The notes under the pieces were generated by a model. The model did no database searches and had not been told where the DNA came from. It saw only the letters and a list, made by a program, of their open reading frames with translations. The translations under genes and the position numbers were made by a program. A stretch of 64,000 nucleotides of DNA from Pyrinomonadaceae bacterium (GTDB lineage Bacteria > Acidobacteriota > Blastocatellia > Pyrinomonadales > Pyrinomonadaceae). Shown piece by piece: positions 1,145 through 16,220 of the stretch; position 1 is the first letter of the stretch; each line of letters begins with the position of its first letter. Where the stretch lies: assembly GCA_028284415.1 (NCBI GenBank), contig JANQRU010000007.1, positions 969,243 through 1,033,242 of the forward strand, given 5' to 3'.

Positions 1145-1729
1145 TAATATACCCGATTACACCCAATTTGGAAACCTGACAAGATTAACCTTTTTTCATC
1201 TTCTAACGTGTCTTGATGGTCTTTGAAAACACCTTCGGAATACCGCAATGAAACATTGTGCTAAAGCAATAAGGAATTTTGCTTTTTGCTAATTTGGCTA
1301 AAGCCAATAGTTTCTTCATAAAGTATCCTCCAACTGAAGTTGGAGGCAAGTTATAAGAAAAGAGAATTTCCACTTTATAACTTGCCACTAGCTTGAGCTA
1401 GTGGATAGCTAAAACAAGAAAACACAAGGCTTTAGCCGAAAATCAAATAAAAGTAAATTCCTTACAGCTTTAGCTAAATTTATTACGGCTTTATCTTTTC
1501 AAAGACCATAAAGGCACGCCTAAATTTACGAAGGTTGCTGACGCGACTTGAAATGTGTTGTTTATACATTTTGAAACATTCTCTTCTATCAAAATCAAAG
1601 AAGGAATGTTATATTAAATTTATAAAAGCTGACCAATTTAATCCTTTTACATAGAAATTTCGCTTGATGATTTTTAAATAAATCAAGCCTAAATTTTTGT
1701 GTGTTTTATTAAAATATTTGGAGGCTTTT

Positions 1730-4094: not shown

Positions 4095-5696
4095 TCAAGG
4101 AGTCAAACCAATTCTAGGTTCTTGCAAAGGCAGATCAATCAACAAAGGGCGATGATCGGAAAGCCTGTCTTCGATCGCTTCATTTACATCCTGAAGGGTT
4201 CTGCCAAAATGCGGTGCAAAACGATACGGCTCATCGTCTTCATCAGGTTCATTGAGTTTGTAGGGCTTTACGAAAAACCAATCAAGTTTGTATTTTCCAA
4301 TAAATCCGATCGGTCTTTTTACCTGATAAGTTGTTTCAAACCCCTTTTCAGCCCTTTGATTAGAATTTGCAAAATCACTATCGCGTCCGTTTGAAGAGCG
4401 TAATTTATCACCGCGAAAATCAAAGGAGTTCCCATCAGAAAAGCGGAAATCCTCTAATCTGTTAAAAAACTTTCTTGCCGGATTTGGTGAGAAAAACGGA
4501 ATATGTCTGACGGTCGGGTCACCCTGCGTTCTCCCAAATGTAATTCCGCCAATAAAAATATCCTCGACCAAACCAAATCCAAGTGCGTAAGAGATTCCTT
4601 TTTTTAACCAAAATTTTGTGCTTCCGAATCGTTTAGCTAATTCCCTCTGAATTGATGTCGGACGCAAATCTTTTCCCGAAGTGTTCATATCGCCCGCAAG
4701 TATCACAGGATTTTTAATGTCTTTAATATCTCCGAGTATTTCTTCCAATTGCTTAACTCTTCCCTTCGATTTAGTTCTGTTTTCCAGATGAGTTCCAACA
4801 ATTGTTACACGTCCCTCCGGAAATCTTTCATCAACGATGTCTGCATAAAGCGTGGTACGTCCGCCGCGTCTGACCTCACGCAAAGTTTTCTCTAGAAAAA
4901 CTTCTTCCGTTATCTTTCTTTTTCCTTGTTCTAAAATGCTCGGACCATCTTTTTCTGATTCGTACCAGTTATAAGGCTGATGCTCAAATGGCACAAGGCG
5001 GACATTTTCTAATGGAAAACGGCTTAAAATAGCTACGCCATGAAGTCCTTTGTAGCGTTCAGGCTTGACCCTTATTATTTCCAGAGCTTCATTTTCTTCT
5101 GCTTTTTCGCTCTTCTTTTCGCGGCTTAAATTAACTGCACTTAACTCTACAAACTGAACTCCGAACGCATAATTCATCTTCAAACTTTTTGCGAGATCAG
5201 CCGTGACATTTCTATAATCCGAACGCTTCATTCCCCAATCAACTTCATTAAGAATTATCACATCCGCTTTTTGCAAAGCTTCTACCTGCTCAAGAATATT
5301 GCTTCTCTTTTTGCTCCCTTTTGGAAATTTCGTTTCATCTAAGAGAGTTATGAATTTCTCCATATCGGAAAATGCTGCTTCAATAGCTTCATACTCCAAG
5401 CCGCGTTCGATGTTCCAAAGAGCTACCCGCAAATGTTCGCCGAGTTCGGGTGAAGTTTCCAGTTTGATTGATTTATTTGAAGCGTAGGAATTATCAACAA
5501 AAGGTGTCGTTAACAAACGATTCAATTTATTTTCGAGTGGTTCGGGAAGCTCTTTTTTGTCATAAAGTGTGGTTAGTTCTTCATAAGACAAAGTTGGTGG
5601 AGAGTTTTCTGGCTTTGCGATTACGAAAGAAGAGACCAATAAAATCAAAATAAAACTTTTGATTATCAATTTGCCGAACGTTTTTACCTTGTACAT
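4095..5696 (-). CDS. Endonuclease/exonuclease/phosphatase (EEP) family protein, secreted
   Basis: Signal peptide is present. EEP hallmarks LRVALWNIERG and ADVIILNEVDWG are seen, with an ORF length of 533 aa. Confidence 0.7.
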   Translation of the reverse strand: MYKVKTFGKLIIKSFILILLVSSFVIAKPENSPPTLSYEELTTLYDKKELPEPLENKLNRLLTTPFVDNSYASNKSIKLETSPELGEHLRVALWNIERGLEYEAIEAAFSDMEKFITLLDETKFPKGSKKRSNILEQVEALQKADVIILNEVDWGMKRSDYRNVTADLAKSLKMNYAFGVQFVELSAVNLSREKKSEKAEENEALEIIRVKPERYKGLHGVAILSRFPLENVRLVPFEHQPYNWYESEKDGPSILEQGKRKITEEVFLEKTLREVRRGGRTTLYADIVDERFPEGRVTIVGTHLENRTKSKGRVKQLEEILGDIKDIKNPVILAGDMNTSGKDLRPTSIQRELAKRFGSTKFWLKKGISYALGFGLVEDIFIGGITFGRTQGDPTVRHIPFFSPNPARKFFNRLEDFRFSDGNSFDFRGDKLRSSNGRDSDFANSNQRAEKGFETTYQVKRPIGFIGKYKLDWFFVKPYKLNEPDEDDEPYRFAPHFGRTLQDVNEAIEDRLSDHRPLLIDLPLQEPRIGLTP

Positions 5697-14217: not shown

Positions 14218-15069
14218 ATGTCGAAAAGGCTTATACGAAACGTCAAAACGGGTGTCACGAAGACTTTGAAATCCAAAAAGATTGTAAAGAAATCACAGTC
14301 GCCATATATATTTCAAAACATTCCGCCCATAAACTTTTCCGACAAACGCTTTACCGTAAAAATTGCAGAGAACGCGGAAGAAGTAGAAGCAGCCTTACGA
14401 CTTCGATACAAAGTATTCAATATTGAGTTTGGTGAAGAAAAAGATACACCTTTCGGGATGGATGTTGATAAATACGACTACACGTCCCATCATCTGATCG
14501 TCAGAAAAAATGATACAAAAGAGGTAGTTGGAGTTTACCGTTTAAGAACATTAGAACTTGCCCAAACTGCCGATCAATTTTATTCAAATCAAGAGTTTAC
14601 ATTAGAAGATTTGTCCGTTGATGTTCTTAAAGATGCGATAGAAATCGGAAGAGCCTCAATTGCTAAAAACTATCGCCACAAAAATGTTCTGTTTCTGCTC
14701 TGGAAAGGTTTAGCCGAATATATCAAAGCCACAAACAAGCGTTATGTTTTCGGTTGTTGCTCATTATTTTCGCAAGACTACTCCGAAGGTTTAAGCACAT
14801 TTCATAAGCTTAAAAATGAAAATTACTTGTGCAATGACAATTTTGTTGAGGGGCAAAAAGAATTTGATTTTACAGATGAAGAAAAACTCTCCGCTAAAAT
14901 AAATGAAGAAATAGAACTTCCACAACTTTTTCGGCTTTATCTAAGAATCGGAGCAAAAGTTTGCAGTCCACCCGTCATCGACAGAAAATTTGGAACGATA
15001 GATTTCTTTGTAATCTTCGACATAGATAATCTCGACAGACGCTACCGAATGCTATTTTTTGGATTGTAA
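14218..15069 (+). CDS. GNAT-fold N-acyltransferase, OlsB/hemolysin-like family (PF13444-like)
   Basis: The 283-aa protein has a pattern typical of ornithine-lipid / lyso-lipid N-acyltransferases. Confidence 0.55.
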   Translation: MSKRLIRNVKTGVTKTLKSKKIVKKSQSPYIFQNIPPINFSDKRFTVKIAENAEEVEAALRLRYKVFNIEFGEEKDTPFGMDVDKYDYTSHHLIVRKNDTKEVVGVYRLRTLELAQTADQFYSNQEFTLEDLSVDVLKDAIEIGRASIAKNYRHKNVLFLLWKGLAEYIKATNKRYVFGCCSLFSQDYSEGLSTFHKLKNENYLCNDNFVEGQKEFDFTDEEKLSAKINEEIELPQLFRLYLRIGAKVCSPPVIDRKFGTIDFFVIFDIDNLDRRYRMLFFGL

Positions 15070-15092
15070 TGTCAGAACCGTCTGCGGTAGTC

Positions 15093-15394
15093 ATTAGTAT
15101 CTACACATCTTTGAAAACTCAATGTCTATTGACTTGTATTCAAGTTTTCTGAGTCGCCAACGGCGACAAACATTATAGCCTATGGTGCAGGCTAAAAGCC
15201 GAAACCATAGGAATTATTAATCAGTCAGTTGTGTCGCTGAAAGCGACAAACATCATTGAACATAGGTTGTTCGTCGCCTACAGCGACGCTATGTTTATTA
15301 CATTTCACCTAGCGATTCTCGCTAGGCTTTAGTGTTTGTCGCCGTTGGCGATAGACAACACAAAGCATCATGTCAAACTTGTGTAGATACTAAT
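15093..15394. mobile_element. MITE-like non-autonomous element / BIME-like REP cluster
   Basis: Perfect 15-bp terminal inverted repeats ATTAGTATCTACACA (15093-15107) and TGTGTAGATACTAAT (15380-15394). GCGGTAG direct repeats lie just outside both ends, at 15084-15090 and 15396-15402. Four internal GTCGC-N4-5-GCGAC(AAACA) hairpin units sit at about 15153, 15233, 15273 and 15338, the last an inverted copy of the first. The element lies between convergent genes. Confidence 0.6.
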
Positions 15395-15494
15395 AGCGGT
15401 AGCGAATGGTTTGAGTTAGTAAACTTGATACTTGATACTTAAAGTTCGAGTTCTCAAAGTTAAACTGCTCACAACCAAAAGCCATTCAGAAAGA

Positions 15495-16220
15495 TCAATG
15501 AAAAGTTTTCTCCTTGAAAGTAATCTCGCCATTCTCATCAATCAAAAGAATTGTTGAAGAGCGTGTTCCGTAAATAGGTGTTTCGATAAATATTGGGGAA
15601 AGAATTCTCTCTTTTTCCAATCCAATTCCCGTGTCGGGTAAATCTTTATCTTCAGCAAGAGTTTTATCGGCGAGGACTTCAAAAAACTTTTCTTCTTCAA
15701 ATTTATCTTGTGAAAGCATCTGAGTTAGAGCTTTTTTGCCACGAAGAACTTTTTGCCAAGGAGTATCTAACAAATGATTGCTTAGTCCATAAACTCCGCT
15801 TGAGAGCATTTTGATTTTCTCACTACAATTTGAGTAATACGCAATCTCTTGTTTTTCATCATTTAATTCGCCAACCAACAAATTAAATCCGGAAAATTTA
15901 TCTTTGTTAGATTCAATTTCTTTCAAATAATCTTTGCTTGAATCATTTCCTTTTAAGAAATTACTGACAAGATCGCCACGCGAAACTGTGCCTTTTGGTG
16001 AGTTTGGTTGGCGATAGTTTGTAACGGCGGCAAAACGTCCCGTGTCGGTCACACCTAACCAAGTTCCGCCACGAACCAAATCTCTACCTGCCAAAATGTT
16101 TGGAAAGTCCTGCCATTTCTGAGCGGCGGCAGTTGGTCTTTCATAAAATTCATCTCGATTCGCCAACAAAATCAGCGGATACTTCGGATGTTCTTGAAAT
16201 GCAAAAAAGATTACGCACAT
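15495..16220 (-). CDS. NRDE family protein (TANGO2-like)
   Basis: LANRDEFYERP motif is present. Family members typically start with MC..., so the start was set at MCVIFFAF (16220), 1 bp after the upstream stop. Confidence 0.7.
   Translation of the reverse strand: MCVIFFAFQEHPKYPLILLANRDEFYERPTAAAQKWQDFPNILAGRDLVRGGTWLGVTDTGRFAAVTNYRQPNSPKGTVSRGDLVSNFLKGNDSSKDYLKEIESNKDKFSGFNLLVGELNDEKQEIAYYSNCSEKIKMLSSGVYGLSNHLLDTPWQKVLRGKKALTQMLSQDKFEEEKFFEVLADKTLAEDKDLPDTGIGLEKERILSPIFIETPIYGTRSSTILLIDENGEITFKEKTFH

Follow-up and report, generated by a model that had tools for sequence, protein, structure and literature searches.

A probable miniature inverted-repeat transposable element with IS50-like ends and a REP-like hairpin cargo in a Pyrinomonadaceae genome

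Background

What is the palindromic block of some 300 bp that lies between two convergent genes in the genome of a Pyrinomonadaceae bacterium (Acidobacteriota; NCBI GenBank assembly GCA_028284415.1, contig JANQRU010000007.1)? The block falls within a stretch of 64,000 nucleotides (positions 969,243 to 1,033,242 of the forward strand), hereafter the window, to which all coordinates refer unless another locus is named. [quoted passage not shown] The evidence presented here makes it very probable that the block is a non-coding MITE, carrying the ends of a Tn5/IS50-like insertion sequence (IS; IS4 family, IS50 subgroup) of related Acidobacteriota.

Results

Limits and ends of the element

Comparison with 30 or more complete relatives placed the element at 15092-15395, with termini of the form CATTAGTATCTACACA(TC/AG)TTTGA. 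The 15-mer ATTAGTATCTACACA occupies 15093-15107, and 15380-15394 read as its exact reverse complement; these were the only two matches in 64 kb at up to two mismatches, where 0.08 were expected, and three mismatches added none. The TIRs are therefore perfect over 15 bp, as first described, and extend to 22 nt with two mismatches (91%). The block is present but its extent of 302 bp required correction to 304 bp, since the true termini, judged from related copies, lie one base outside the 15-mer (C at 15092; position 15395). The longest open reading frame (ORF) overlapping the element has 36-39 amino acids (aa), and the element is non-coding.

Each end of the element is like a different end of an IS. 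The left end, CATTAGTATCTACACATCTTTGAA (15092-15115, plus strand), is like the transposase-distal IS end: it is identical at 24 of 24 nucleotides to the IS end at L044 (loci in other genomes carry L numbers), and agrees with the IS50-subgroup end consensus CW------Y---CA-A--W- (PMC2266710 Table 1). The right end, which reads TATTAGTATCTACACAAGTTTGACA on the minus strand (15371-15395), is like the transposase-proximal end; over positions 2-25 it matches exactly the left IS end at L037 and L041.

Related elements in other genomes

The end motif ATTAGTATCTACACANNTTTGA, with 20 specified bases, was searched for by exact match in one genome per species; by our own estimate, about one match would be expected by chance in 596 Gb. 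It was found at 25 loci in these representative genomes, 24 of them in metagenome-assembled genomes (MAGs) of Acidobacteriota/Pyrinomonadaceae, with ten loci in one MAG, five in another and two in each of two more. The remaining match, in a Flavobacteriaceae MAG (L025), lies inside an ORF and has no partner end, and was taken as the expected chance match. The motif also occurred in 23 further contigs from JGI metagenomes, while viral contigs gave no match to it and plasmids no match to the element. Many loci are situated less than 200 nt from a contig end, as is typical of dispersed repeats, at which assemblies break. The exact ends bound both non-coding elements and transposase-bearing ISs at these loci, which upholds the MITE-like character first proposed and, at the level of the family, favours a mobile element.

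The enclosed DNA was sorted into classes by BLAST of the interiors and inspection. Class a comprised window-like elements of 302-328 bp; full-length copies from three other MAGs (L009, L010, L017) are colinear with the window copy throughout, at 72-76% identity, with partial copies at L003, L014, L022, L026 and L027, a short form at L016 and a variant with an extra insert at L023. The majority of loci belonged to class b, where the ends surround an unrelated cargo of 226-249 bp with GCGGC-NNN-GCCGC and GAGGC-NNN-GCCTC hairpins. Class c consisted of 'minis' of 84-104 bp (L029, L030, L036, L045) that hold little beyond the two ends, one of which (L029) is flanked by a perfect 8-bp duplication, GGTTTGAG. 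Class d contained elements of about 1.4 kb (L031, L037, L038, L041, L044). Identical ends were thus found around unrelated interiors, and therefore have the appearance of a transposase recognition site.

Several loci showed additional structure. Copies of both cargo types, L007 (401 bp) and L023 (395 bp), contain additional inserts, among them hairpins like ACAGGCTGTTAGCCTGT, and are thus nested repeats. At L015 (3019-3173), an element of about 155 bp that does not contain the ATTAGTATCTACACA 15-mer sits between the arms CAATTGCCACTAG and CTAGTGGCAATTG; its ends, TCTTTGAAAA and TTATCAAAGA, lie 8 nt from the arms, as do IS insertions, and the two 8-mers differ (GCTGATGG, CAATAAAC). The sequence GGTCTTTGATAA recurs as a subterminal motif at the left end of the IS. 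L009 was checked as a possible nested insertion; its right flank is half of a REP-like unit, and the copy displays no duplication.

The autonomous partner

Autonomous elements with matching ends were identified at L031, L037, L038, L041, L044 and L050-L054. ISs sharing the TIRs of the window copy, for which the initial annotation had recommended a search, therefore exist and are IS4/Tn5-like elements of about 1.4 kb (1391-1469 bp), each with a single ORF of 421-445 aa (429-445 aa for those recovered by the end-motif scans). Four of the proteins are 46-72% identical to that of L037. In a four-protein alignment the residues D70, D164 and E308 are invariant, with spacings of 94 and 144, as is a YREK motif, Y301-x2-R304-x3-E308-x6-K315, within ALWYYWRWRIESFFKLLK; DDE spacing of D(60-110)D(100-150)E and the motif Y-2-R-3-E-6-K define the IS4 family (PMC2266710, 'IS4 family goes genomic'). 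A single transposase sequence produced no match when compared with the PDB. A profile of the four transposases matched only the Tn5 transposase and its inhibitor there (E = 4e-8), aligning DREAD with the region of Tn5 D188 and RWRIE-F-K with the region of Tn5 E326. NCBIfam models of the IS4 family also match the transposases (E = 1e-22 to 1e-27), though with scores under the equivalog cut-offs.

Members of the IS50 subgroup are 1350-1550 bp long, have the ends CW------Y---CA-A--W-, possess the YREK motif and generate direct repeats of 8-9 bp (PMC2266710 Table 1). The lengths of the present ISs, their single ORF and their duplications of 8 bp (sometimes 9 bp) agree with this definition, and the IS end CATTAGTATCTACACAAGTT fits every conserved position of the consensus when the C before ATTAG is counted as position 1. 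The transposase family is large, with 2072 database matches, most of them labelled 'hypothetical protein' and located on contigs of about 1.4 kb. The inner nine bases of the IS ends, TACACAAGT / TACACATCT, coincide in register with those of the outside end of Tn5, CTGACTCTTATACACAAGT, and of its mosaic end, CTGTCTCTTATACACATCT. A gene on a Citrobacter freundii plasmid (L055; NZ_CP046504.1 77162-78958), 37.6% identical and annotated only as 'transposase', lies between the ends CATAAGAATCTACACATCT and CATAGGCATCTACACAAGT, which are flanked by a duplication of 9 bp, CCCAAGATG. The end type ..ATCTACACA(T/A)(C/G)T is therefore conserved in distant proteobacterial relatives, well beyond Acidobacteriota.

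The window was said to hold no transposase, and tblastn with the two queries used, the cognate IS4-type transposase and the Y1 transposase described below, gave no match to it in either case.

One further observation concerns the protein models. The C-terminal 340 positions of NCBIfam NF011312 (PRK14723, 'FlhF') match the transposases of L031, L037, L038 and L044 (E = 1e-24 to 1e-34), far below the cut-off yet better than the IS4 models do; this suggests that NF011312 was built from sequence fused to, or contaminated by, an IS4-type transposase.

Target site and flanking genes

The motif GCGGTAG had been noted just outside both ends as a candidate target-site duplication. Both copies are present (15084-15090 and 15396-15402), but they do not abut the 15-mer, standing 2 nt and 1 nt away from it, because the duplication across the family is 8 bp. 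The actual duplication comprises GCGGTAGT on the left (15084-15091) and GCGGTAGC on the right (15396-15403), which match at seven of eight positions; flank pairs that are not partners reached at least 7/8 in 3.4% of comparisons. Among 31 complete elements from two scans, ten matched at 7/8 or better over 8 bp, and these represent nine distinct insertions, since L030 and L036 are one junction. Two further elements have 9-bp duplications. A closed contig of 4.53 Mb contains at least four identical 1391-bp IS copies at different loci (L050-L053), each with a perfect 8-bp duplication (GTCTTAGC, CGACAGCC, GTTTTAAC, GCTTTAGC) abutting C-ATTAG...CTAAT-G, and the IS copy at L054 is likewise flanked by a perfect 8-bp duplication, CCGTGAGG. 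A reading of the direct repeats as the att core of a site-specific recombinase was abandoned in view of these copies, which bear a DDE transposase and perfect 8-bp duplications.

Among the duplication-bearing copies the target is two-fold symmetric, and may be written CC-N4-[8 bp, often GCTNNAGC]-N4-GG; all five IS copies in L050-L054 obey this consensus. The window also conforms, reading aaCC gtct GCGGTAGT ... GCGGTAGC gaat GGtt, with the CC half at 15078-15079 and the GG half at 15408-15409. At L021, L008, L024 and L040 a different arrangement was observed: the 8-mers beside the ends are mutually reverse-complementary (e.g., GCTTCAGC, GCTGAAGC) rather than direct, and the entire hairpin arm is mirrored. 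Recombination between oppositely oriented copies, palindrome homogenisation or assembly chimeras are possible causes.

Both neighbouring genes are convergent on the element. A gene for a GNAT (Acetyltransf_5, OlsB-like) acyltransferase (14218-15069, plus strand; Pfam PF13444, E = 1.7e-25) ends with its stop codon 22 nt before the element, and the stop codon of an NRDE/TANGO2 family gene (15495-16220, minus strand; Pfam PF05742, E = 1.5e-82) is 99 nt from its other side. Database homologues put the NRDE/TANGO2 product at 241 aa; P0001, which has this length, shows 100% identity to it, and Pyrinomonadaceae/Acidobacteriota come next in relatedness. In the nearest relative available (L001) the same genes, both at 78% aa identity, are also convergent, and the syntenic spacer of 108 bp does not contain the element; the window spacer amounts to 113 bp after subtraction of the element and one copy of the duplication.

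The site before insertion would read ...AACCGTCT-GCGGTAG(C/T)-GAATGGTT... When reconstructed, it is a weak palindrome that folds no better than shuffled sequences (z = -0.9), and insertion into a terminator hairpin is accordingly not claimed for the window copy. A direct repeat of 10/12 was seen between CGCTACCGAATG (15040-15051, which codes for RYRM in the GNAT gene's 3' end) and CGGTAGCGAATG (15397-15408); this likeness is probably a coincidence stemming from the quasi-palindrome CGGTAGCG.

The interior and alternative explanations

The four internal hairpins of the original description were all found, but with a loop of 5 nt in every case rather than of 4-5 nt. The pattern GTCGC-N5-GCGAC occurs at 15153, 15233, 15273 and 15338, four matches where 0.56 would be expected, and the rest of the window has none; the first two hairpins have the tail AAACA on the plus strand, while on the minus strand the third has GAACA and the fourth AAACA. 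Unit 1 (15153-15211, plus strand) consists of a hairpin A (GTCGC-CAACG-GCGAC), the linker AAACATTATAG and a hairpin B, CCTATGG..CCATAGG (15179-15211), with an inner GGC-TAAAA-GCC hairpin. Unit 2 (15233-15252, plus strand) is a hairpin A (GTCGC-TGAAA-GCGAC) followed by AAACA, and its hairpin is identical to that of a free unit at L040:2541. Unit 3 (15268-15287, minus strand) is an inverted hairpin A, which forms with unit 2 a nested inverted doublet of 20-nt arms, 85% complementary and 15 nt apart. Unit 4 (15308-15352, minus strand) is an inverted near-copy of the hairpin A and linker of unit 1, together with a hairpin B, CCTAGCGA-TTC-TCGCTAGG (15308-15326). As had been recognised, the fourth hairpin is an inverted copy of the first, over 29 nt at 93%, and the unit 4 segment is kept in all four aligned copies. 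The further hairpins listed at the outset are the two B hairpins. With the pairs 1/4 and 2/3 nested, the block is indeed a long imperfect palindrome, with fold z scores of -10.6 on the plus strand and -12.4 on the minus strand relative to shuffles. Its description as 'AT-poor' holds only weakly, for its G+C content of 40.5% compares with 37.3% for the window and equals that of the remainder of the spacer.

Units 1 and 4 carry a full A-linker-B layout that matches free REP-like units of the relatives. There, a bipartite unit is composed of a hairpin A whose stem varies, some 10 nt of linker (..CAT.TT.(G)TAG) and a hairpin B, CCCA(C/T)AGC-loop-GCT(G/A)TGGG. Such units occur free in intergenic DNA (unoccupied examples are L033:210 and 12773, L039:8200, L040:2541 and L049:10419), and the loop of hairpin B is the most frequent landing site, with many insertions of IS or MITE situated in it. 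Hairpin A is 93.5% paired over 18 units, including window units 1, 2 and 4; five of its six pairs change on both sides, giving 31 double-change cells, a level that 0 of 500 shuffles reached, while slid registers of the alignment are only 22-57% paired. Most free units of the relatives read GTAG-CCCA(C/T)AG. This GTAG tag is absent from the window units (...ATTATAG-CCTATGG and ...CTAAAG-CCTAGCG), and neither the hairpin-A motif nor the linker motif was found outside the MITE in 64 kb.

At one locus (L054, 4290-5130) the repeat family flanks an IS200-type Y1 gene (4563-5015, 150 aa), with a direct unit on either side (hairpin B, CTTTATGCTTTC, hairpin A) and, upstream, an inverted third one that holds an IS4-type IS. 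The Y1 protein scores 83.7 bits with the IS200/IS605 TnpA model (cut-off 55) and 28.9 bits with the RAYT model (cut-off 80). The arrangement suggests that the REP-like units form the ends of a Y1 element or derive from one.

This association is one argument for regarding the entire block as a REP/BIME-type cluster, in which the mobile or functional entity would be the hairpin units, spread by a transposase of Y1 (RAYT / IS200-like) type, with an incidental outer inverted repeat. The four units do fit a covarying bipartite family that occurs free in related genomes, and the doublet of units 2 and 3 resembles a REPIN. However, the outer ends are exactly common to dozens of elements with unrelated interiors and to transposase-bearing ISs, and the 8-bp duplication and target consensus flank the entire block instead of single units. 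Moreover, the window has no other unit of the family and no Y1 gene, and its units read ATAG or AAAG where the tag would be GTAG. The REP/BIME suggestion is thus apt for the interior hairpins but, for the element as a whole, is largely refuted and considered very unlikely.

The folding and the location could also reflect a native, locus-specific structure selected in place, which might be a bidirectional terminator of complex kind or else a structured RNA that has escaped annotation. Both strands fold very stably; between 14800 and 15700 lie four hairpins of terminator type followed by T-rich tails (0.4 expected), three of them inside the element; and a position between convergent genes would suit a terminator. 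Yet the stable fold is a trivial consequence of the palindromic build, the nearest relative has no such element in its syntenic spacer, and homologous elements occur in many unrelated contexts. Scans of the whole window for tRNA genes and with Rfam 15 at gathering score returned no match, and hence no RNA family. A native origin is judged exceedingly improbable, although terminator activity acquired after insertion, by exaptation, is possible. Decay in situ of a full-length IS, by internal deletion after it had inserted here, is scarcely credible: the resemblance of the two ends to the two different IS ends (transposase-proximal and -distal) is what a deletion derivative would show, but homology to the IS stops about 24 bp in from each end, and three or more other genomes have the 300-bp cargo, colinear in full, at different loci, so the short form predates, and moved independently of, this insertion.

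Two observations relate to the landing sites in the relatives. The recurrent landing hairpin is CCACTAGC-NNNN-GCTAGTGG, which the insertion splits. The conserved flank ...AATTGCCAC-TAGCTTCAGC-C-ATTAG was considered as an extended TIR of 40 nt but turned out to be an arm of this hairpin; it was rejected as the start of a small ORF (MAEASGNL...), many copies carrying stops, and as a promoter, the spacer being about 22 nt. The second observation is another MITE-like palindromic block in the window (1216-1509). It lies between divergent genes, and perfect inverted repeats of 14 bp, ATGGTCTTTGAAAA, mark its limits (1216-1229, 1496-1509). It contains CCACTAGC-TTGA-GCTAGTGG (1385-1404), an unoccupied copy of the hairpin that is split in relatives, and its homologues stand directly beside insertions at L053, L052, L019, L016, L028 and L039. 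No clear duplication was seen around this block.

Discussion

A course of events can be proposed for the MITE, its chemistry being modelled on what is known of Tn5. The two ends of about 24 bp would be the binding and cleavage sites of the Tn5/IS50-like DDE transposase that the ISs of about 1.4 kb encode. Supplied in trans, the transposase would bind both ends and excise the element by cut-and-paste, whereupon the element would be joined to a target cut with a stagger of 8 bp (sometimes 9 bp) at CC-N4-[8 bp]-N4-GG, and repair of the stagger would leave the GCGGTAG(T/C) duplication. Landing in the spacer of two convergent genes was probably neutral. The interior would not derive from the IS; its four REP-like hairpin units, in ++-- order, appear to come from a separate repeat family. 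The window copy is probably older, and possibly immobile, because its right terminal base and one base of its duplication are mutated; it may no longer be mobile.

Several points weigh against this interpretation. The right terminal base is A (T on the minus strand) where three of three aligned relatives have G (C), and the duplication in the window is imperfect (7/8). Among the copies from MAGs and metagenomes, some two thirds display no clean duplication, for which recombination between copies or chimeric assembly may be responsible. Scores of the transposase with Pfam and NCBIfam are mostly below curated cut-offs: with Pfam DDE_Tnp_1 (cut-off 23) one protein scored 24.8 bits, another 20.5 and two proteins none, and with NCBIfam transpos_IS4_3 the range was 76-94 bits against a cut-off of 160. 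The window contains a single copy and no transposase, and the copy counts come from other genomes. Part of the conservation that sets the ends apart from the cargo is a product of the searches, which required an exact 20-base motif. Lastly, the comparison with an empty site, envisaged in the initial annotation, did yield a spacer that does not contain the element, but in a distant relative whose spacer is too diverged for base-exact alignment.

With IS50 and Tn5 (De Palmenaer et al. 2008, PMC2266710) the partner IS has in common the single ORF with DDE and YREK residues, the length, the duplications of 8-9 bp and the end consensus. The window differs in having only a non-coding derivative, and the partner transposase is very divergent from that of Tn5, there being no phmmer match with a single sequence. 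The host clade is Acidobacteriota, whereas the IS50 subgroup was mainly found in Proteobacteria by the 2008 survey; the ends begin with CA, while those of most IS10/IS50 members begin with CT (PMC2266710); and the target is a longer symmetric site, CC-N4-N8-N4-GG. As with bacterial MITEs, such as the Correia elements of Neisseria or IS-derived examples (PMC10969869), the element is short and non-coding, has TIRs identical to those of an IS and a duplication, is multi-copy (in related MAGs) and intergenic, and folds into a long hairpin. Unlike these, its interior is unrelated to the parent IS and consists of units from a different repeat family; identical ends enclose no fewer than two cargo types, as well as the minis of 84-104 bp. 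The MITE and its IS4/IS50-type parent apparently constitute an unnamed family of a well-known kind. Nothing specific to this family in Acidobacteria was found in the literature, only general MITE surveys and the IS4 classification, ISfinder not being covered.

Insertion into REPs has precedents; the REP-targeting insertion sequences IS1397 and ISKpn1 were reportedly treated by Tobes and Pareja in 2006. In IS1397, which inserts in BIMEs, as in the IS and MITEs described here, the insertion enters a hairpin loop, but the inserting IS here is of IS4/IS50 type and not of IS3 or IS110 type. The window insertion also departs from that pattern, since it is not in such a unit but in the weak palindrome described above, which fits CC...GG. 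REPs are imperfect palindromes of 20-40 bp with a GTAG or CGTC tag on one end. REP/BIME sequences, including GTAG-tagged REPs (PMC3733652), offer a comparison for the cargo units and for the sites preferred for landing in relatives: these are extragenic, GC-rich, covarying palindromes of 20-40 bp that in the relatives are often preceded by GTAG. They differ in their bipartite build (A, linker, B), and the window's own units do not have GTAG. The inverted hairpin doublet of units 2 and 3, and the units placed around a 150-aa Y1 transposase at L054, recall REPIN/RAYT systems and IS200/IS605. In contrast to REPIN/RAYT, the L054 protein is like IS200/IS605 TnpA rather than RAYT, and the association was confined to that one locus, with nothing of the kind in the window.

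A more speculative idea, to which little weight is given, is that the IS50-like transposase family of these Acidobacteriota constitutes a homing system for the hairpin loops of Y1-associated repeats, the MITEs having captured such units as cargo. The symmetry of the target, the repeated insertion into hairpin B and the construction of the cargo from units are all observed; the cargo hairpins would be putative targets themselves, Y1 would putatively act on them, and targeting would be by structure rather than by sequence. If this were true, each MITE insertion would seed new landing pads and lead to self-nesting 'Russian-doll' palindromes, and the element could be mobilised by two unrelated transposases, by DDE through its ends and by HUH/Y1 through its hairpins.

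Current understanding of MITEs and IS4 elements is unchanged by the identification of the block as a probable MITE with IS50-like ends. It does allow the intergenic palindrome to be annotated as mobile-element DNA, and not as a regulatory RNA or a locus-specific terminator, and it ties the palindrome to a large IS50-like family (about 2000 database proteins) that usually assembles as orphan contigs of 1.4 kb and breaks the assemblies of Acidobacteriota MAGs. The REP-like cargo exemplifies the combination of different repeat families, and the CC-N4-[8]-N4-GG target, together with landing in REP-like hairpins, provides a small, testable case of a strongly site-selective relative of Tn5.

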